Part shown: in pieces, positions 12,696 to 32,882 of the stretch
Layout of the letters: the number at the start of each line of letters is the position of its first letter
Position numbering within the stretch: the stretch's first letter is position 1
Assembly: GCA_030877765.1 (NCBI GenBank)
Contig: GCA_030877765.1_4853.1
DNA length: 46,671 nucleotides
From: a phage
Reading direction: 5' to 3' (one strand)
The notes under the pieces: model-generated
Database searches by the model: none
Seen by the model: only the letters and a program-made list of their open reading frames with translations
What the model was told of the DNA's origin: nothing
Translations under genes and position numbers: made by a program

Positions 12696-12849
12696 ACAGA
12701 AAGTCTGGCAACTCGCAAAGCAGCACGAATTAGACGATTTCATCGAGAAGGTTGCAAAGACATTCCCTGACGCGCTTGAAGTCGTTCATGTGCAGACGCG
12801 AAATGAAAATGCATGGTGCTACACAAAAAATCATACAAATGGTAGATGA
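12682..12849 (+). CDS. Hypothetical small protein (55 aa)
   Basis: ATG at 12682 within track ORF 12616-12849. Confidence 0.3.
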   Translation: MQTTKQKVWQLAKQHELDDFIEKVAKTFPDALEVVHVQTRNENAWCYTKNHTNGR

Positions 12850-13276
12850 AATGAAGCTAACAAAAAAACAACGCGAAGAGCTACGCATGAAGTTCGGTGG
12901 TCGCTGTGCTTATTGTGGGTGTGAGCTACCCGAGAAAGGTTGGCATGCAGACCATGTTGAACCAGTGCTACGTAAATCTGAGCAGTGCATGAAGGCAGCG
13001 GCGAAAGGGATTTTCAAGCTGAAGGCAACCGGTGAGCTATATCGACCAGAAGCAGAGCGACTGGAAAACCTTTACCCTGCGTGCGCCCCCTGCAATCTGA
13101 TGAAAACTTCCTATTCCCTGGAAATGTTCAGGAAGCAGGTATCTCTTCAGGTTGCTCGTGGGCGCAAAAGCAGCATGAATTTCCGCACTGCAGAGCGTTT
13201 CGGTCTTATCGCCGTGGTGGAGAAACCAGTTGTTTTCTGGTTTGAGAAATACCAGGAAGAGAACGAAAAAAAATAA
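12839..13276 (+). CDS. HNH endonuclease (terminase-associated type)
   Basis: CAYCGCEL...HADHVEPV...ENLYPACAPCNLMK: Cys4-type HNH motif, positioned just upstream of the terminase genes. Confidence 0.8.
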   Translation: MVDEMKLTKKQREELRMKFGGRCAYCGCELPEKGWHADHVEPVLRKSEQCMKAAAKGIFKLKATGELYRPEAERLENLYPACAPCNLMKTSYSLEMFRKQVSLQVARGRKSSMNFRTAERFGLIAVVEKPVVFWFEKYQEENEKK

Positions 13277-14019: not shown

Positions 14020-14532
14020 ATGCGACCCTTAAAAGAAGAAAAACTCACGCAAGACAGGCTGAAAGAGTTGCTGCATTATAACCATGATACTGGTATTTTC
14101 ACATGGGTTCAGCGCGCCTCAAAAAGCGTAAGAGTTGGTAATTCAGCTGGCAGTAAGAATAAGTCAGGCTATATAGATATACGCATCGATAAGTCTTTAC
14201 ACAAAGCTCATCGGCTTGCGTGGCTTTACATTTATGGTGTGTGGCCCAATGGGAAAATAGATCACATCAATAACGTGAAGACAGATAACAGAATCTGCAA
14301 CCTGAGAGAAGCAAGCAATAATGAAAACGGATGGAATGCTGGTAAACCATCGACAAATACGTCAGGAGTAAAAGGTGTGAGTTGGGATGCAGAGAAAAAT
14401 AAATGGAAGGCGCATTGCAGGGTTTTTGGGAAAAAATATACAGTAGGTAGGTTTTCATCAAAAGAATATGCTGAGAGAGCCGTGGCGGAGTTCAGAGAGA
14501 AACATCACGGGGAGTTTTTTAATCATGGCTAG
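14020..14532 (+). CDS. HNH-AP2 homing endonuclease (paralog 2 of 4), between terS and terL
   Basis: AHRLAWLYIYGVWPNGKIDHINNVKTDNRICNLR followed by NTSGVKGVSWDAEKNKWKAHCRVFGKKYTVGRF. Confidence 0.85.
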   Translation: MRPLKEEKLTQDRLKELLHYNHDTGIFTWVQRASKSVRVGNSAGSKNKSGYIDIRIDKSLHKAHRLAWLYIYGVWPNGKIDHINNVKTDNRICNLREASNNENGWNAGKPSTNTSGVKGVSWDAEKNKWKAHCRVFGKKYTVGRFSSKEYAERAVAEFREKHHGEFFNHG

Positions 14533-15949
14533 AAAAAGACTCTCAAGTGTGGCAATCGAAAAACTTGAACAGGCGGTTGGAAACTCAACTTCAAAGCCTG
14601 AGTCTGCTGTATTTGGCATTGTTAACAAACTGCTTGCCGATGGTACGCCTAATGTTATAAAGCGCCTAAAAATGACATCAACAGGCGTATCTGAAACAAA
14701 CGAAGAACCAACAATACTCATTCCCGAGAGAATGGAATTACTGCTTTATCCTCGCCGTTTCAAAGTGTTCTATGGAGGTAGGGGCAGCGGAAAGACGGCT
14801 AACGTTGTTTCTTACCTTATAGAAAAGGCAAGATTTCGCAACAGCCGCGTCGGATGCTTTCGTGAGATACAGAACTCAATCAAAGAATCAAGCTATGCCG
14901 AACTGGTTGATGAGATAAACAGGAAAGGACACACTCAGGAATATCGTTGCGTGGATGGTGAAATAACCCACCATTCAACGAGGTCAAAGTTTGTTTTCCG
15001 TGGTTTGTGGCGAAATATAACCGCCATTAAGGGTATGGCTGGCCTTACAGATGTATTCTGTGAAGAATCAGAAAATATCAGCCAGGTTTCATGGGATACG
15101 CTAATCCCAACAGTCCGCGCCGCTGGCTCTGAAATTATTATTGTTTTTAACCCAAACAAAGAGACGGACCCGACATGGACTAACTTTGTTGCGCCTTATA
15201 TTGACAAGATGGTTGACGGCATATATCAGGATGATGACATCGTTGTTGTTAATGTTAATTACATCCACAACCCGTGGTTCACGGAAGAACTTAAGCAGCA
15301 CATGAACCAGATGAAAGCTGTGGATTATGATCGCTACCTTTGGGTGTATGAAGGCTTATTCAACAAGCGGTCTGACGAAGCTGTTCTCGGGGGGAAATGG
15401 CAAACACTCGACTTTGAACCATCTCCTGAGTGGGGTGGGCCTTACTACGGCATTGACTTTGGTTTTTCTCAGGATGCAACAGCAGCAACTGAATCATATG
15501 TAGAAGATTTGGGTGATGGACGAAGAAACCTGTATATCTATCGTGACTTTGCAAAGGTTGGCCTTGAGATAACTGACACGCCGGAAGCGATGCGCTCAGC
15601 ATTCCCAAATTCAGAGAAGTACAGATGGTATGGGGATTGCGCAAGACCTGAAACAATAAGCCATATACGACGCTCTGGATTCGATATTCATCCGTGCGCA
15701 AAATGGCCGGGGAGCATTGAGGACGGTATTACGTGGCTGCGTGGGTGTGACAGGATTTACGTGCACTCAAGATGCAGGCACGTCATTGAAGAGATGACAA
15801 TGTACAGCTATAAGGTGGACAAATTAACAGGTAACATACTCCCTGATATAGTTGATAAATACAATCACGCGATTGATAGTTTACGCTATGGACTTGGAGA
15901 TCACATCGTTCAACGCGGTAGCGGGATGCTAATCCGGCGCAGTCGATAA
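14525..15949 (+). CDS. Terminase large subunit
   Basis: Walker A YGGRGSGKT, ATPase and nuclease domain layout; ATG 14525 overlaps the HNH stop. Confidence 0.9.
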   Translation: MARKRLSSVAIEKLEQAVGNSTSKPESAVFGIVNKLLADGTPNVIKRLKMTSTGVSETNEEPTILIPERMELLLYPRRFKVFYGGRGSGKTANVVSYLIEKARFRNSRVGCFREIQNSIKESSYAELVDEINRKGHTQEYRCVDGEITHHSTRSKFVFRGLWRNITAIKGMAGLTDVFCEESENISQVSWDTLIPTVRAAGSEIIIVFNPNKETDPTWTNFVAPYIDKMVDGIYQDDDIVVVNVNYIHNPWFTEELKQHMNQMKAVDYDRYLWVYEGLFNKRSDEAVLGGKWQTLDFEPSPEWGGPYYGIDFGFSQDATAATESYVEDLGDGRRNLYIYRDFAKVGLEITDTPEAMRSAFPNSEKYRWYGDCARPETISHIRRSGFDIHPCAKWPGSIEDGITWLRGCDRIYVHSRCRHVIEEMTMYSYKVDKLTGNILPDIVDKYNHAIDSLRYGLGDHIVQRGSGMLIRRSR

Positions 15950-23121: not shown

Positions 23122-23423
23122 TATTTAATCTCTCCGTTCAGTTCATTAACAATTAACGTTGCATAGCCAGCAATATCTTTCCAGCTGTCATCATAAGTCG
23201 GGTCGCCATTCAGAATGCGCCCAATCTTGTGCTGAATCATGTCGAGCGCCTCGCGTTGACTTGGTGTGAGATTGCGCCAGCCATCTACCTTGCGCATCAC
23301 ATCTTTCAACTCCTGCATAATTTCAGCGCCGTCTTTGAATTTACCGTATCGACTACCGCGTTCGGTGATGAGTCGCTCTGTTGCGTCAGTATGGCGCTTA
23401 TCGCCCGTGATTTGTGAACTCAT
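23121..23423 (-). CDS. Hypothetical protein (100 aa)
   Basis: Operon-coupled ORF. Confidence 0.45.
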   Translation of the reverse strand: MSSQITGDKRHTDATERLITERGSRYGKFKDGAEIMQELKDVMRKVDGWRNLTPSQREALDMIQHKIGRILNGDPTYDDSWKDIAGYATLIVNELNGEIK

Positions 23424-23910
23424 TGTGATGCATTCTCCTGAATTCTTTTATTTTTGCTTCTGCTTCTCTTATGTCGGAAAAGTAACCAACTGTGAATCTT
23501 TTGCCATTTACTCCAACTCTTGCATGCCACTTGTTGTGCGATGAACTCCAGTTAACCCCCTTGATACCGCTAGTGTTGTTTTTGTTCATTGCTTTGTTGT
23601 GGCTATTCTCAAATTTGCTGGCCTCCCTTAAATTGCACGCCCTGTTGTCATTGCGAATGCCATTAATGTGGTCAATCATTTCACTTGCTGGCGCGCCATG
23701 AATGCATATCCATGCCAATCTGTGAGCAAGAAAAGCCCTACCGCAAAGAATTATTTGCACATATCCATCTGGCTTTAAGTAGCCAGCCACACTCCCTTTT
23801 TCTGCAATCCTATTCCTTGTCTTTAGCCATTTAAATTCCCCAGTTAGTGGATTGTAGTAAAGGTAACTCAATATAAACTCCCTACTCGGCTCATCTCTCC
23901 TATGCCTCAT
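23398..23910 (-). CDS. HNH-AP2 homing endonuclease (paralog 3 of 4)
   Basis: AHRLAWICIHGAPASEMIDHINGIRNDNRACNLR followed by NTSGIKGVNWSSSHNKWHARVGVNGKRFTVGYF. Confidence 0.85.
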   Translation of the reverse strand: MRHRRDEPSREFILSYLYYNPLTGEFKWLKTRNRIAEKGSVAGYLKPDGYVQIILCGRAFLAHRLAWICIHGAPASEMIDHINGIRNDNRACNLREASKFENSHNKAMNKNNTSGIKGVNWSSSHNKWHARVGVNGKRFTVGYFSDIREAEAKIKEFRRMHHNEFTNHGR

Positions 23911-24470: not shown

Positions 24471-24665
24471 ATGGCGCATGACGAACTGTACGAAGAATCG
24501 TTAATCCAGAGGTTGAATGAAGTTGAGCGCACTCGCGAATGGCTGGAGTGCGAGTTACGAGAAGTGCGCAACCGCCTGCAACGCAAGCGCAGTCAGCAAA
24601 GAGATGTCATCGACTGGTCTGGGGGTACACCTAAATTTAACAATCTGGGAGAATGGTTGAAATGA
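24471..24665 (+). CDS. Hypothetical protein (64 aa)
   Basis: Track ORF in operon orientation. Confidence 0.4.
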   Translation: MAHDELYEESLIQRLNEVERTREWLECELREVRNRLQRKRSQQRDVIDWSGGTPKFNNLGEWLK

Positions 24666-25192
24666 GCAACATTAGTAAGGAAAGCATTTTAAAGTTCCTC
24701 CAGCATGATGAAAATACAGGAAACTTTCTATGGATTGATAATTTCTCAAGAAAATCAAAGAAAGGGAAGGTGGCTGGAGGTATTACATCGCATGGGTATT
24801 GGAGAATTCAACTCCCCATCGGGAGGTTTTACGCACACAGAATGGCGTGGATTGTTTGCAATGGAGATATACCAAACGGATATGAGATTGATCACATAAA
24901 TGGGAACAAGAAAGATAATCGCATCAGCAACCTAAGATTGGTCACAAGAGGTCAAAATGTTATGAATGTAGGCGTGAAAAACAATAATACAAGCGGAGTT
25001 AAGGATGTTGTTTGGGACTCTTCGCGAGAAAGGTGGAGGGTTCAAATTACAGCCAATGGCAAGCATTATTATGGAGGTAGATTCTCGTCAATAACACAAG
25101 CAAAAGAGGAGAGGAACAGGCTCATAAAGATGGTTCACGGGAAATTTTTGAATACAAAAGGTGAGCAATATGACACTACTAATGAACGATGA
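24653..25192 (+). CDS. HNH-AP2 homing endonuclease (paralog 4 of 4)
   Basis: AHRMAWIVCNGDIPNGYEIDHINGNKKDNRISNLR followed by NTSGVKDVVWDSSRERWRVQITANGKHYYGGRF. Confidence 0.85.
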   Translation: MVEMSNISKESILKFLQHDENTGNFLWIDNFSRKSKKGKVAGGITSHGYWRIQLPIGRFYAHRMAWIVCNGDIPNGYEIDHINGNKKDNRISNLRLVTRGQNVMNVGVKNNNTSGVKDVVWDSSRERWRVQITANGKHYYGGRFSSITQAKEERNRLIKMVHGKFLNTKGEQYDTTNER

Positions 25193-27208: not shown

Positions 27209-29091
<1,883 letters not shown>

Positions 29092-29102: not shown

Positions 29103-30176
29103 ATGGAAAAGATTATTTTTACCAAAGACTTGGTAGCCAACTCCGCAGTGGTGGCTGACCAGTGGAAACATCTCACCATCGACCGCAAGGTGTTCTGCAA
29201 TGCAGAAGCTGAACTGGCGAAAACATACGGTGTTAACGCCACCGCGCTGGTAACGAAAGATTACTGGCGCGACGTGGATAACGTCACCACCCGTGTTTTC
29301 CGCAACGAAGCTGGCCAGGACATGATGGCTGACCTGATGGGTATCGCGGCAAACATTAACATTGGTAAGACTGTGGCAATCAGCCGCATTGCTTCCGATG
29401 CTGGCAAGGTAGTCCGCACTCTGTCTGGTCAGGAGCCGGAAGACTTGGATAAAACTCGCTACGATTACACTGGCGACGTGATTCCAATCTTCAAAACTGG
29501 CTACAGCCGCGAATGGCGCGAACTGCTGGGTATGCAGTCTGAAGGTTTTGACCCCCTGCTGGACGATCAGGCTAACGTCACCTTTAACCTACGTTCCGAC
29601 ATGGCGCAGTATCTGCTGACCGGCGACCAGACTCTGAACGTGAACGGCGTTTACACTGGCTACGGTATCACCAACCACCCGAACACCATTCAGGTCAACC
29701 TGAACATTCACGATGGCGGCCTGAATATCGACCTGCAAACCGCAACGCCAGATGAAATCGTGAAATTCTTCAATCAGGATTTCCAGGCTATTCTGGATGC
29801 GCAGAACGTATTTGAGCAGGTGACTCTGTGGGTTTCCCCGGCAGTGCGTCGCAGTTTCATGCGTCCGTATTCTAATGCGGCTGGCTTCAAAGGCGGCACG
29901 GTTGAGCAGTACATCACGCAGTTCGGTAATGGTCGCATTGGTAAGATTGGCACCAACTTCCTGCTGACTGGCAACCATTTCGTTGGTTACGTTCGCAATG
30001 ACATGTACATCCGTCCGCGTGTTGCTCAGCCTGTCTCCACCTATGCGGCAGCTCGCACCAACCCGCACGATAACTTTAACTTCCTCGTATGGTCTGCTTT
30101 CGGTCTGCAGATTCGCAAGGATGCCGCTGGAAAAAGCCGCGTCTTTAATGGCTATGGTAGCCAGGAAGCTAAATAA
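29103..30176 (+). CDS. Major capsid protein
   Basis: 357 aa, strong RBS, followed by a strong terminator; lambda E-like position and size. Confidence 0.65.
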   Translation: MEKIIFTKDLVANSAVVADQWKHLTIDRKVFCNAEAELAKTYGVNATALVTKDYWRDVDNVTTRVFRNEAGQDMMADLMGIAANINIGKTVAISRIASDAGKVVRTLSGQEPEDLDKTRYDYTGDVIPIFKTGYSREWRELLGMQSEGFDPLLDDQANVTFNLRSDMAQYLLTGDQTLNVNGVYTGYGITNHPNTIQVNLNIHDGGLNIDLQTATPDEIVKFFNQDFQAILDAQNVFEQVTLWVSPAVRRSFMRPYSNAAGFKGGTVEQYITQFGNGRIGKIGTNFLLTGNHFVGYVRNDMYIRPRVAQPVSTYAAARTNPHDNFNFLVWSAFGLQIRKDAAGKSRVFNGYGSQEAK

Positions 30177-30179
30177 TAA

Positions 30180-30205
30180 AAAAGGGGGTTTATCCCCCTT
30201 CTTTG
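30180..30205. terminator. Bidirectional terminator
   Basis: Stem aggggg/ccccct with T-runs on both strands; on the minus strand it overlaps the last codons of 30190-30996. Confidence 0.75.
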
Positions 30206-30996
30206 TATCTAATTTCACCGTAAACCATGTACTGTAACATGTAACAAAACTCCCATTCCGTCATATCTGTCCGTAGCCACTTCCTGTTCTTCTTGTAATT
30301 GTACTCCGCCAGCTCCGCTTTTAAATTGTGAAGAGCATTAACCAGTTCTGGATATACGAGGTTATTCTTAACAAACCAGTTGACAGATAAAATATGGTCA
30401 ATATGCCAATTATTGCGGTCATCAAAACTCATCCATGGAAGCATGGTTGATTTTATATGCTTAATGAAATCATCCTTTGAGTACCCGAGAACATCATCTA
30501 CTGTTCTATCAAGCGCAATGTCAGATACTCTCATATCAAGCCGCTCAAGCATTTTTCTTAGGAACACGTGGTGTGGGTGCTTCTTTTGCCATTGCCTGAC
30601 ATTATCCAGAGCCTTTTTATTGCCTTTCTCTGAGTAGTACCATCTGCGATAAGCTTCCCTTTTCTTTTGTAAAAACTCCTCCTTTTTCTCTGGATTCTCG
30701 TTAAGCCTTTGCATCTTCCTTTTGTTGTACTCCTGTTGTGATTGTTTTCTTTTCTTTTTGTACTCGCTGTTATCCTTGTTTTTCTGCCACTCCTTTTTTC
30801 TGTACTCACTTTCCTTGCGTTTGCGCTCCTCTGTTGTTCTCTGCTTCCTTGTTCTTTCGTATACGCAATGCTTGCATCCGCCTGATGCTGTAAAAAACAC
30901 AGTTCCACCACATACAGAGCATGGAATCCATTCACACACAAATTGCTTCAGTCCAGCAACCCTTGCTTCTTGCGCGGCTTCTTTTCTTGTTTTCAT
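30190..30996 (-). CDS. Zinc-ribbon, Lys/Glu-rich protein with C-terminal HNH-like motif
   Basis: N-terminal CEWIPCSVCGG...CKHC; long KRKE-rich middle; C-terminal NNWHIDHILSVNWF. Confidence 0.5.
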   Translation of the reverse strand: MKTRKEAAQEARVAGLKQFVCEWIPCSVCGGTVFFTASGGCKHCVYERTRKQRTTEERKRKESEYRKKEWQKNKDNSEYKKKRKQSQQEYNKRKMQRLNENPEKKEEFLQKKREAYRRWYYSEKGNKKALDNVRQWQKKHPHHVFLRKMLERLDMRVSDIALDRTVDDVLGYSKDDFIKHIKSTMLPWMSFDDRNNWHIDHILSVNWFVKNNLVYPELVNALHNLKAELAEYNYKKNRKWLRTDMTEWEFCYMLQYMVYGEIRYKEGG

Positions 30997-31082
30997 AAAG
31001 TCACTCCTAATTTGGTTTTATATTACCACGAGTGTAACTAGTGTGCTACAATTAACCAGCATTAACTCATGAGGATATTTAA

Positions 31083-31280
31083 ATGGCTAAATACGAAGTG
31101 ATTGCGCGAGGCATCTTTGTCAAAGAAAAAGGCAAGATTCGTGAGTTGCAGCTTGGCGAGGTGATTACCGAACCTGCTGATCATCTGATGTCAAAGCTGC
31201 GCGTTATGCCAGAACTGGAAAAATCTTTCGAAGTCGCAACCCCGCAAGAAAAGACGACAAAGAAAAAGAAAGCAGAGTAA
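31083..31280 (+). CDS. Hypothetical protein (65 aa)
   Basis: Track ORF followed by a terminator. Confidence 0.45.
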   Translation: MAKYEVIARGIFVKEKGKIRELQLGEVITEPADHLMSKLRVMPELEKSFEVATPQEKTTKKKKAE

Positions 31281-31284
31281 ACTG

Positions 31285-31310
31285 AACCCGCATAATGCGG
31301 GTTTTTTATT
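31285..31310 (+). terminator. Rho-independent terminator
   Basis: Stem cccgc/gcggg, 5-nt loop, TTTTTTATT. Confidence 0.75.
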
Positions 31311-31320
31311 GGGGGTTTCT

Positions 31321-32139
31321 ATGGCTGTCAGGTACGAAATAAACACAACTCCGGCTGACGGAGAGGTTTTGCTTAGCGAAACCATGTCTGCGGACTGGTC
31401 AGCATTACAGGTGCAGATTGTGCCGCTAAATTCTTCCGGTGGCTATGTGCCATTAACAAGCGGGTCTGTTTACGTAATGGTATCGCCGTTTGCGTCTGGT
31501 GATTTCTGGATTGACGTCAACAATAATAATTATTATGGCGTAGCGCTGCGGCTGAAGGTGATCAAGTCCCAAATACCTGCTGGCATTGCATCTCTGAAAG
31601 TCCTTGTATGGCGAGCAGCTACATCAGTGCCATCAAGTCAGGTTGTGGCACAGTCCTATGCAGAGTTTGCTAACAAGCAAGGGAAGTTATTCACTGCGTC
31701 GCGCAGAGTAACTGATGTCGCTGGCAGCTCAAACCTTGACAGCATATTTATCACCGGAACAAAGCAGGTGATATTCAACCAGCGCATTATTGGTTACACG
31801 GGGAAAGGTGTTGTTGCATCAATCTATCGCGGCGCAGTTGCCACTGGCGGTACGACGGCAGAGATTAACAACCCAAACGACATAACGCCACAAGCAGCTA
31901 CGGCGCAGTTAATTACTGGCGCTACCGTGACAAACATCGGGCAGCTGACGGTGGCGGCAACATACAGTGAGGGTAACGCATCGAATCAGGGGCAGGGTAA
32001 CTCGCAGGCGAAGCTCGGCGAGCAGATTATCATGGCACCGAATACGACGTACTTACTTCGCATAACATCACTAGATACTGCGGCGCAGAATATCAATGCG
32101 TACGTTTCATGGTTTGAGGATGATACTTATCTGGCGTGA
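31321..32139 (+). CDS. Hypothetical (probably virion-associated) Thr/Ala/Gly-rich protein
   Basis: 273 aa from MAVRYEIN; flanked by terminators on both sides. Confidence 0.5.
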   Translation: MAVRYEINTTPADGEVLLSETMSADWSALQVQIVPLNSSGGYVPLTSGSVYVMVSPFASGDFWIDVNNNNYYGVALRLKVIKSQIPAGIASLKVLVWRAATSVPSSQVVAQSYAEFANKQGKLFTASRRVTDVAGSSNLDSIFITGTKQVIFNQRIIGYTGKGVVASIYRGAVATGGTTAEINNPNDITPQAATAQLITGATVTNIGQLTVAATYSEGNASNQGQGNSQAKLGEQIIMAPNTTYLLRITSLDTAAQNINAYVSWFEDDTYLA

Positions 32140-32172: not shown

Positions 32173-32709
32173 CTACAGACGCATAGGCATAACAACAATC
32201 TTCGCAGTCTCTCCAGATGGCGCACTAAGACAGCAAACAGCGGCATCTGTGTTTCCATTTAGTTCAAATTTAACGCAACAGAATCTTGGGTTAAACAGCT
32301 TTGCCACCTTCTCGATATCAACAAGGTAGCCAGCATTGAAGCCAATTTTCTCTGCAGGCAAGGTCTGATTCGGAATGACGCGATCAATATCAGGGAATCG
32401 ACCATCAATCTCTTCGCAGATACCTGCTCCAACCATCGCGCCGGCTTCATCATGATACGTTGCAATTTTCGACTTTGTATCAATGATGGCGTGCTCATAA
32501 CGCTTTGTTGGTGACTTGCCAATCTTGATGATTACATTTTCTGTCAGCTTATTGTCATGGTTGCCACCAATAAATGCGCGATGACCGTCAGTTGAGGCAA
32601 TGCGACCATCTTGCATAAAGCAAATACCATTCAGGTAGTAGCGCACATCATTGCGAGCCTGAAAGATTAATGCTGATTCAAGTAATAATTTGCTGATTTT
32701 TAGTTTCAT
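32173..32709 (-). CDS. Truncated DnaN-like sliding clamp (beta-clamp) fragment
   Basis: Blocks shared with E. coli DnaN as recalled: DVRYYLNG, TDGHR, DGRFPD, IGFN..Y.LD, C-terminal VVMPMRL. At 178 aa it is about half of a full clamp. Confidence 0.7.
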   Translation of the reverse strand: MKLKISKLLLESALIFQARNDVRYYLNGICFMQDGRIASTDGHRAFIGGNHDNKLTENVIIKIGKSPTKRYEHAIIDTKSKIATYHDEAGAMVGAGICEEIDGRFPDIDRVIPNQTLPAEKIGFNAGYLVDIEKVAKLFNPRFCCVKFELNGNTDAAVCCLSAPSGETAKIVVMPMRL

Positions 32710-32882
32710 CACTTCACCTTAATCATGTGTTGTTTTGCAACCTTCAGGCATTCTTCAAAAATGCCACCATTCTTTGCGCTCTGATTGCGCTTGTAATACT
32801 GAATTGCCGCATCAATTGCCATCTGGTCGATTTCAGGCAGTTTTGCGCGCAGCTGTTTTTCGATGAATTGTTCGGCGTTCAT
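32709..32882 (-). CDS. Small protein (57 aa)
   Basis: ATG 32882; stop overlaps the clamp-fragment start (TGATG); below track cutoff. Confidence 0.3.
   Translation of the reverse strand: MNAEQFIEKQLRAKLPEIDQMAIDAAIQYYKRNQSAKNGGIFEECLKVAKQHMIKVK

Follow-up and report, generated by a model that had tools for sequence, protein, structure and literature searches.

The 46,671-nucleotide phage contig GCA_030877765.1_4853.1 (GenBank assembly GCA_030877765.1), which we refer to at its full length as the window, carries between its major capsid gene and the next late gene a leftward gene for a 268-amino-acid (aa) protein that is probably a free-standing HNH endonuclease of the homing type, residing in a single-gene cassette. 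Its sporadic occurrence among relatives, its low GC content and its discordant divergence, together with four other HNH open reading frames (ORFs) in the window, suggest that 'another mobile nuclease', as the gene had been tentatively called in an earlier sequence-only reading of this DNA, is an apt description. The gene is real, far beyond chance: its orthologues share 57–100% amino acid identity, the ratio of their non-synonymous to synonymous divergence (dN/dS) is 0.055–0.15, and the family to which they belong comprises 6,845 cluster representatives. In every GenBank record examined it is labelled 'hypothetical protein'.

One fixed site in T1-like phages

The window belongs to a T1-like (Drexlerviridae-type) siphophage, whose closest match over this region is Salmonella phage vB_SenS_ST1UNAM (98.8% identical). 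As a set of related records we used the 203 phage records that match the flanks, from phages of Salmonella, Klebsiella, Escherichia and Shigella. A presence/absence check across this set found the cassette in 14 records, representing 11 phages, and at one fixed site: the orthologues always sit in the spacer between the capsid gene and a conserved 65-aa ORF, and always antisense, while ~93% of the related records lack the gene. A more distant copy, the metagenomic protein P0015 (35% identical), is likewise encoded convergently with a T1-like capsid gene and ends in KEGG-TAA within a hairpin.

A gap of only 41 bp separates the capsid gene from the 65-aa ORF in the insert-less phages YX3973, HC8A and Bas80, against 906 bp in the window and 901–918 bp across nine cassette-bearing loci (the window and eight others). 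Those 41 bp, counted from the capsid stop codon, hold a GGGGC-loop-GCCCC terminator, a T-tract and GAGGTG, followed by the ATG of the 65-aa ORF, and the cassette of ~895 bp takes the place of ~30 bp of them: the hairpin loop, its 3' arm, the T-tract and the Shine-Dalgarno sequence of the 65-aa ORF. Both junctions can be read from Bas80, which equals the window up to ...TAAAAAAGGGG (30187) and is identical again from the ATG at 31083. Directly before that ATG, insert-less phages have GAGGTGAATA-ATG and insert-bearing phages GAGGATATTTAA-ATG. In STGO-35-1 the same spacer is filled by an unrelated rightward gene of 115 aa (locus L014, 1709..2056, +; phrog_322, carrying an unknown-function label); since the spacer can hold a different gene, it is a hotspot for accessory genes and recombination in T1-like phages.

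These comparisons bear out the sequence-only reading as far as the locus is concerned. The ORF was found exactly as that reading had described it (30190–30996, leftward, 268 aa), and ORF positions and strands agree with its statement that the gene runs antisense to the capsid genes; it is antisense to the capsid gene, the decoration-protein gene and the 65-aa ORF alike. What had been taken for a single-gene insert beside the capsid gene corresponds to the difference between the 41-bp and the 906-bp gap, and the last codons of the gene do lie within the capsid terminator hairpin. Conservation of the ORF, on which that reading had staked its proposal, is evident from intact orthologues under purifying selection.

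Signals carried by the cassette

The hairpin at the left edge of the cassette (Table 1) folds with −14.9 kcal/mol on the + strand, where it comes after the capsid stop codon, and with −17.9 kcal/mol on the − strand (z −4.3, then a T6 run), the − strand being the better terminator of the two orientations. Its 3' arm and loop are built by the last codons of the nuclease gene, AAA GAA GGG GGA TAA, the last four codons doubling as terminator stem. The stem is retained in all nine insert-bearing loci (9/9), with variation in the loop and the stop codon. At the protein level, the C-terminal K-E-G-G (30193..30204 in the window; 820..850 in L016, a distant metagenomic locus) is still present in a copy of 35% identity, and the apparent reason is that its codons GAA GGG GGN double as the G-run of the terminator stem; the end of the protein thus appears to be under a dual constraint, from protein and RNA structure.

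Two −10-like elements of opposite direction lie in the 86–91-bp region to the right of the nuclease gene. On the leftward side, the Shine-Dalgarno sequence AGGAG is kept in the six closest loci, with AAGGA instead in the Klebsiella and CF-SP1 copies, and the putative −10-like element has counterparts in other loci (TAGTAATAT, TGCTAAGAT and TGTTACCAT); it is a consensus match only, not called by a stricter promoter scan. The rightward element, which the scan did call, recurs as TG[CT]TA[CT]AAT in each of the ten loci with a cassette that were compared (the nine above and L016), always 29–30 nt ahead of the start codon of the 65-aa ORF; the 41-bp empty site has neither this nor any other promoter-like element. 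The rightward element may serve as a cassette-borne promoter for downstream phage genes. No operator-like inverted repeat common to the loci compared was found between the divergent promoter-like elements. Judging from consensus motifs, the cassette appears to replace the signals displaced from the empty site by bringing a terminator arm, a promoter-like element and a ribosome-binding site (RBS) of its own.

Table 1. Positions in the window of the nuclease cassette, its parts and the flanking genes.
Feature	Position	Strand	Remarks
Whole cassette	30188..31082	−	~895 bp; from alignment with YX3973/HC8A and junction comparison of 12 loci
Nuclease coding sequence	30190..30996	−	ATG start, 268 aa, stop codon 30190–30192; zinc-knuckle/helical-repeat/HNH protein
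Zinc knuckle C26-x2-C29 ... C41-x2-C44	30865..30921	−	Treble-clef-like; CxxC-x11-CxxC
Basic helical repeat region, aa 45–152	30541..30864	−	Putative DNA-binding arm
HNH (beta-beta-alpha-metal) core, aa 188–240	30277..30435	−	Beta1 197–201 (WHIDH), N224, beta2 225–229, helix 230–236 (N233, K236)
Subfamily-specific C-terminal tail, aa 244–268, ...EWEFCYMLQYMVYGEIRYKEGG	30193..30267	−	Predicted helix 247–259
Bidirectional intrinsic-terminator hairpin	30178..30204		Common to capsid gene (+) and nuclease gene (−); nuclease stop codon in loop
Shine-Dalgarno AGGAG of nuclease	31004..31008	−	7 nt upstream of ATG; read from sequence
Leftward extended −10-like element TGGTAATAT	31020..31028	−	23 nt upstream of nuclease ATG; candidate nuclease promoter
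Rightward extended −10 element TGCTACAAT	31044..31052	+	TTACCA 18 nt upstream; 30 nt before ATG of 65-aa ORF; called by scan
Replacement Shine-Dalgarno GAGGA of 65-aa ORF	31071..31075	+	Cassette-supplied; junction comparison
Decoration-protein gene	28624..29091	+	Opposite strand to nuclease ORF
Major capsid gene (left flank)	29103..30176	+	Pfam DUF6260, E 7e-113; named major capsid protein in relatives
Conserved 65-aa ORF (right flank)	31083..31280	+	phrog_2138, function-less label

A divergent HNH protein

We hold with high confidence that the 268-aa protein, as aligned and modelled here, is a divergent member of the HNH superfamily with a complete catalytic set. A word-indexed homologue search returned 14 close relatives; an exhaustive profile search returned 6,845 cluster representatives at E ≤ 1e-3, of which 587 reached E ≤ 1e-10; most were proteins of ~240 aa matched end to end. 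An alignment of 85 family sequences (17% mean column identity) has Y172, D200, H201, N224, N233 and K236 invariant and W197 and H198 at least 90% conserved, with an N-terminal consensus GLKxYFTGKPCKxGH...CxxC and a C-terminal consensus WHIDHIxPxS.F...INALSNLQPLWAxDNLSKGxK. The C-terminal tail is nearly invariant in close homologues and is present in P0015 as well. Among the 85 relatives, 19 match PF01844 (HNH; best 1.3e-4) and five match PF13395 (HNH_4), all weakly. Aligned by hhalign with the PF01844-positive protein encoded elsewhere in the window (12752..13276), the protein has WHxDH...NL...N..K in register (E 5.8e-5, probability 65%). In PHROGs it matches phrog_1035, 'endonuclease VII', over residues 2–257 (E 4e-19). 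Matches to DUF2852, DnaG, RNase Y and others in Pfam and NCBIfam we set aside as compositional noise from the K/E-rich region.

The structural model points the same way. A first AF2 model, made from the 14 close sequences, had pLDDT <50 at residues 197–241 and was set aside for one made with the 85-sequence alignment (pLDDT 93, pTM 0.64), in which a beta-beta-alpha core is predicted, with H201 ending beta1 and N233 on helix 230–236. Foldseek searches with this model gave 25 BFVD matches at E ≤ 1e-3, including proteins named 'HNH endonuclease' or 'HNHc', and most of the 34 PDB matches listed, none of them significant, are HNH/His-Me nucleases: Cas9 HNH, the SspE C-terminal domain, Vvn, Gme HNH and PtuB.

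N-terminal to the predicted core, the four cysteines C26, C29, C41 and C44 are invariant in the 14 close homologues, and C41 and C44 are at least 90% conserved in the 85-sequence alignment (consensus PCKxGH...CxxC); in the AF2 model this region forms strands 18–20 and 34–36, the second CxxC capping helix 42–54. The segment that follows is basic (aa 45–140: 70% K/R/E/D/Q/N, pI 10.2) and is modelled with pLDDT ~95 as helices 42–54, 56–74, 77–100, 102–120, 123–139 and 141–152, with breaks of 1–2 residues between them. The helical middle probably binds DNA. The sequence-only reading had proposed an N-terminal Cys4 site, a low-complexity KRKE-rich middle and a C-terminal HIDHI...N motif. The first finds its counterpart in the invariant cysteines and the last in the conserved W197-H198-I199-D200-H201 ... 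N224 ... N233; of the middle, the basic composition stands, and the segment is not unstructured, five consecutive helices being predicted instead. The nuclease or zinc-finger fold that the same reading had called for is likewise seen, as an AF2-predicted HNH-type core and a conserved C4 knuckle.

Composition, selection and history

Comparison of nine intact nuclease copies gave the dN/dS of 0.055–0.15 quoted above, which indicates purifying selection. The GC content of the cassette and its gene, 39.8–40.6%, is below that of the window (46.6%) and of the capsid gene (52%); it falls within the lowest 5% for segments of that size and resembles that of two other HNH genes of the window. Divergence of the nuclease and capsid genes is discordant. 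On the one hand, the synonymous divergence (dS) of the capsid gene between the window and each of VSt472, 64795_sal3 and ZCEC08 is 0.32–0.35. On the other hand, that of the nuclease gene amounts to 0.18 against VSt472 and is saturated (>2) against 64795_sal3 and ZCEC08. Within the capsid gene, synonymous divergence climbs from 0.15–0.30 to 0.43–0.57 in the last ~60 codons, beside the cassette. The discordant dS and the divergent capsid end would both fit repeated gene conversion, and the capsid gene is a candidate region for the cleavage site and the co-conversion tract. However, given the mosaic make-up of T1-like genomes and the lack of a strict link between capsid 3'-end variants and the presence of the cassette, neither pattern is specific to homing or to repeated gene conversion.

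Likeness to known nucleases

Free-standing or intron-encoded HNH homing enzymes are exemplified by the F-Tfl enzymes of T5 and by I-HmuI, respectively. With free-standing phage enzymes of this kind, such as T4 MobE (PMC2790892), the cassette in the window shares its place as a single intergenic gene between conserved genes, its sporadic distribution and a GC content below that of its flanks; the proteins share one HNH site joined to an extended arm for binding DNA, a metal site of the D-H...N...N type and their occurrence several to a genome. The window protein differs in the order of its parts, a zinc knuckle, helical repeats and then a C-terminal HNH domain, without helix-turn-helix or NUMOD modules, and in going undetected by the Pfam models HNH, HNH_3 and HNH_4; its homing role is one that we infer. 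The cassette is also distinct in supplying a terminator arm and a promoter-like element to genes of its host phage.

The top PDB matches of the model are the HNH domains of Cas9 (7mpz, 9ar4 and 6j9n). The Cas9 motif DHIVPQSF...N...NRGK is paralleled by the family consensus DHIxPxS.F ... NL ... DNxxKGxK. Matches to Cas9-type HNH, PF13395 and PF01844 are nevertheless weak (best E 0.14 by structure and 1e-4 by sequence, the window protein itself having none), and the window protein, unlike Cas9, has neither an RNA guide nor a RuvC partner; its own helical arm would do the targeting.

The resemblance to F-CphI and T4 endonuclease VII (PMC6083498) lies in membership of the beta-beta-alpha-metal superfamily, in an Asp-His pair with a distal Asn, and, as in F-CphI, in the C-terminal position of the catalytic domain. 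The DHHRN family is defined by the signature CX2-4C ... DHDH ... R ... CX2C-N, in which a zinc site brackets the catalytic motif (PMC6083498). The window protein has no bracketing CX2-4C/CX2C, no DHDH and no conserved Arg, and its own zinc site is a separate N-terminal knuckle; on these motif grounds we ruled out endonuclease VII/DHHRN membership in spite of the PHROGs label.

Proteins in BFVD also match the model, among them an 'Intron encoded endonuclease' of Bodo saltans virus (A0A2H4UUB1, E 2.4e-8), Mimivirus L246 and an HNH protein of Xanthomonas phage FoX1, which match over their full length (E 2e-8 to 4e-5) at 14–21% sequence identity, predicted structure being compared here with predicted structure. 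Our literature searches found no paper on this HNH family or on the cassette in T1-like phages.

Proposed mechanism

We infer nuclease activity, a target site, homing, promoter function and DNA binding by the helices, and from these the following course of events can be proposed. Leftward transcription of the gene would start at an extended −10-like element of its own and stop at the hairpin shared with the capsid gene, with translation depending on its strong AGGAG. The protein would bind DNA through its N-terminal C4 zinc knuckle and the basic zig-zag of helices, and binding would position a C-terminal one-metal HNH site, with H201 as its general base, Mg2+ bound by D200 and N233 and the hairpin braced by N224, roles that we assign by analogy with D839/H840/N863 of Cas9 and D40/H41/N62 of T4 endonuclease VII. 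In a co-infecting relative without the cassette, the protein would then nick or cut the DNA where the capsid gene meets the 65-aa ORF, or close by, and repair by recombination with the cassette-bearing genome would transfer the cassette, together with neighbouring flank, to the genome that had been cut; the cut would also penalize the competitor. The cost to the phage would be limited, the terminator stem being rebuilt from the cassette's own last codons and a rightward promoter-like element and an RBS being brought along for the downstream genes.

Weighing the alternatives

A homing-type nuclease is the explanation that we favour, and its presence in ~7% of related records, usual for a selfish homing nuclease gene, makes this an ordinary kind of finding. 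Several observations weigh against it. None of the Pfam HNH models PF01844, PF13392, PF13395 and PF14279 matched the window protein even at E ≤ 10, no relevant PDB sequence turned up with the full protein, its middle, its C-terminal domain or the 85-sequence profile as query, and Foldseek found no significant match in PDB (best E only 0.14). Linkage between capsid 3'-end variants and the cassette, which would be an immunity signature, was sought across loci and was not strict: Bas80 is empty and yet has the window-type capsid end, while ZCEC08 and 64795_sal3 are filled and yet have the other type. The discordant dS is not homing-specific in genomes that are mosaic anyway, and nuclease divergence partly follows that of the capsid (78% identical where the nuclease is 57–62% identical). 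Long vertical residence with repeated loss could also yield the patchy distribution, because the nuclease partly tracks the capsid and a 35%-identical copy shares the site in a distant T1-like contig, and strong purifying selection at such depth could mean a benefit to the phage. The promoter calls, too, are consensus matches only.

Such a benefit is the core of the somewhat unlikely alternative that the gene is an accessory, moron-like nuclease without homing, which degrades host or competitor DNA, acts in superinfection exclusion or counters host defence. The low dN/dS, the keeping of one site down to 35% identity and a promoter-like element and terminator of its own, as in morons, would all suit this, as would a spacer that is a general accessory-gene hotspot (witness the 115-aa gene of STGO-35-1). 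In addition, one study reports that homing endonucleases mediate interference competition among co-infecting phages (PMC11620839). However, a gene absent from ~93% of related records is dispensable for growth, and a long sequence-reading arm with a single HNH site is the architecture of a site-specific homing enzyme and not of a bulk nuclease. A gene that homes may also bring a benefit in competition, and biologically the two explanations overlap.

A catalytically dead, HNH-derived DNA-binding regulator, acting for instance on the adjoining divergent promoter region, would account for the large basic helical region with its structural likeness to STPR (see below), the zinc knuckle, the divergent promoter-like region next to the gene and the failure of the Pfam HNH models; we consider it very unlikely, since all HNH catalytic residues are invariant in 85 diverse relatives, which is unexpected for a dead domain, and no conserved operator-like inverted repeat occurs in the divergent region across loci. 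The packaging-associated HNH proteins of the HK97 gp74 type, which assist terminase, are small, encoded beside the terminase genes of cos phages and conserved within groups. That our HNH protein is encoded within the morphogenesis region recalls them, but the large terminase gene (14468..15949) is ~14 kb away, and the HNH gene runs antisense to the late genes and is missing from ~93% of relatives; on position and distribution we reject this explanation, giving it next to no credence. An endonuclease VII-type Holliday-junction resolvase, serving recombination or packaging, is suggested by the best PHROG (phrog_1035, as above) and by the fact that T4 endonuclease VII too has a D-H...N metal site (PMC6083498). 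It is nonetheless highly improbable: CX2-4C, DHDH, the conserved Arg and CX2C-N are lacking around the catalytic motif, which is HIDH, PF02945 is not among the Pfam matches of the protein or its 85 relatives, the gene is absent from most relatives, and the phage has another protein labelled as a RusA-like resolvase (32173..32712).

The family elsewhere and its repeats

Members of the family occur just as sporadically at other sites in unrelated phages. In Kolesnikvirus-type phages a homologue is found downstream of the DNA polymerase gene, where it adjoins another variable HNH gene; ~3 of the 36 related records have it at full length. In a Vibrio phage a homologue sits between the portal and head-morphogenesis genes.

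Between zinc knuckle and HNH domain, relatives (P0016–P0163; for example P0030, residues 64–130) carry 2–11 tandem copies of a 15-residue unit, [YW][RY]x[EK]N[KRP][ED][KR][IVL]xxxx[RK]x, and Pfam scans of 85 members gave no match attributable to these repeats. In shape, three helices of the window model superpose on the DNA-bound STPR of Bombyx FMBP-1 (PDB 5d23) with 1.8 Å over 64 residues at 19% identity. The helices of STPR run along the major groove, its repeats are strictly 23 residues long and conserve Glu1, Thr/Ser2 and Arg9, and STPR has been described as mainly confined to animals (PMC4856987). The likeness, in which a predicted model is compared, consists in tandem basic helices of ~20 residues with 2-residue linkers. 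In contrast to STPR, the window protein has repeats of irregular length (helices of 19, 24, 19 and 17 residues) and most relatives have a unit of 15 aa instead of 23, and STPR is not fused to a nuclease. No sequence match to 5d23 was found, and the likeness is one of shape only. It is conceivable, if quite unlikely, that the middle represents a DNA-reading module, built of helical repeats and so far undescribed, of HNH nucleases from phages and giant viruses. Such a module would lie along the major groove as STPR does, and the number and identity of its repeats would set target length, and perhaps target sequence, in a modular way.

Neighbouring genes and other HNH genes of the window

The genome is unusually HNH-rich. 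The four further HNH ORFs of the window lie at 12752..13276 (+), 14020..14532 (+), 23398..23910 (−) and 24653..25192 (+); by type, one is PF01844/phrog_2118, two are HNH_3 with AP2, and one is HNH_3. The large terminase gene begins within the ORF at 14020..14532.

Directly after the 65-aa ORF comes a strong, terminator-like hairpin (31284..31304, +) with a 9-bp stem followed by a T run, and the short late genes of this region each appear to be individually insulated. Further downstream, a 276-aa ORF (31309..32139, +; phrog_5335 with an unknown-function label, no Pfam match) is variably present: it is missing from YX3973, Bas80, VSt472, 64795_sal3 and ZCEC08, and found in HC8A, S192, RCIP0071, BUCT610, CF-SP1 and STGO-35-1. 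Annotations conflict for the gene beyond it (32173..32712, −), which GenBank calls 'DNA polymerase III beta subunit' and RefSeq/PHROGs 'RusA-like Holliday junction resolvase' (phrog_3007, E 4e-61); its protein also matches a processivity-factor family, more weakly.

Implications

A function is hereby proposed for a gene that has so far been a 'hypothetical protein', the fifth HNH gene in a 47-kb phage genome. It stands for a large HNH family (~6,800 cluster representatives) that Pfam misses and PHROGs calls 'endonuclease VII'. The capsid/65-aa-ORF spacer is marked as a recombination hotspot, which is relevant to phage biology and to phage-therapy genomics. If the cassette is indeed selfish, it would be a tidy example of one that keeps host gene expression intact, by way of a terminator built from its own codons, a promoter-like element and an RBS. 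Should the helical repeats turn out to read DNA as suggested above, thousands of uncharacterized nucleases would have a common, tunable recognition scaffold, and if the repeats prove to be a modular reader the family might become a source of site-specific nickases.

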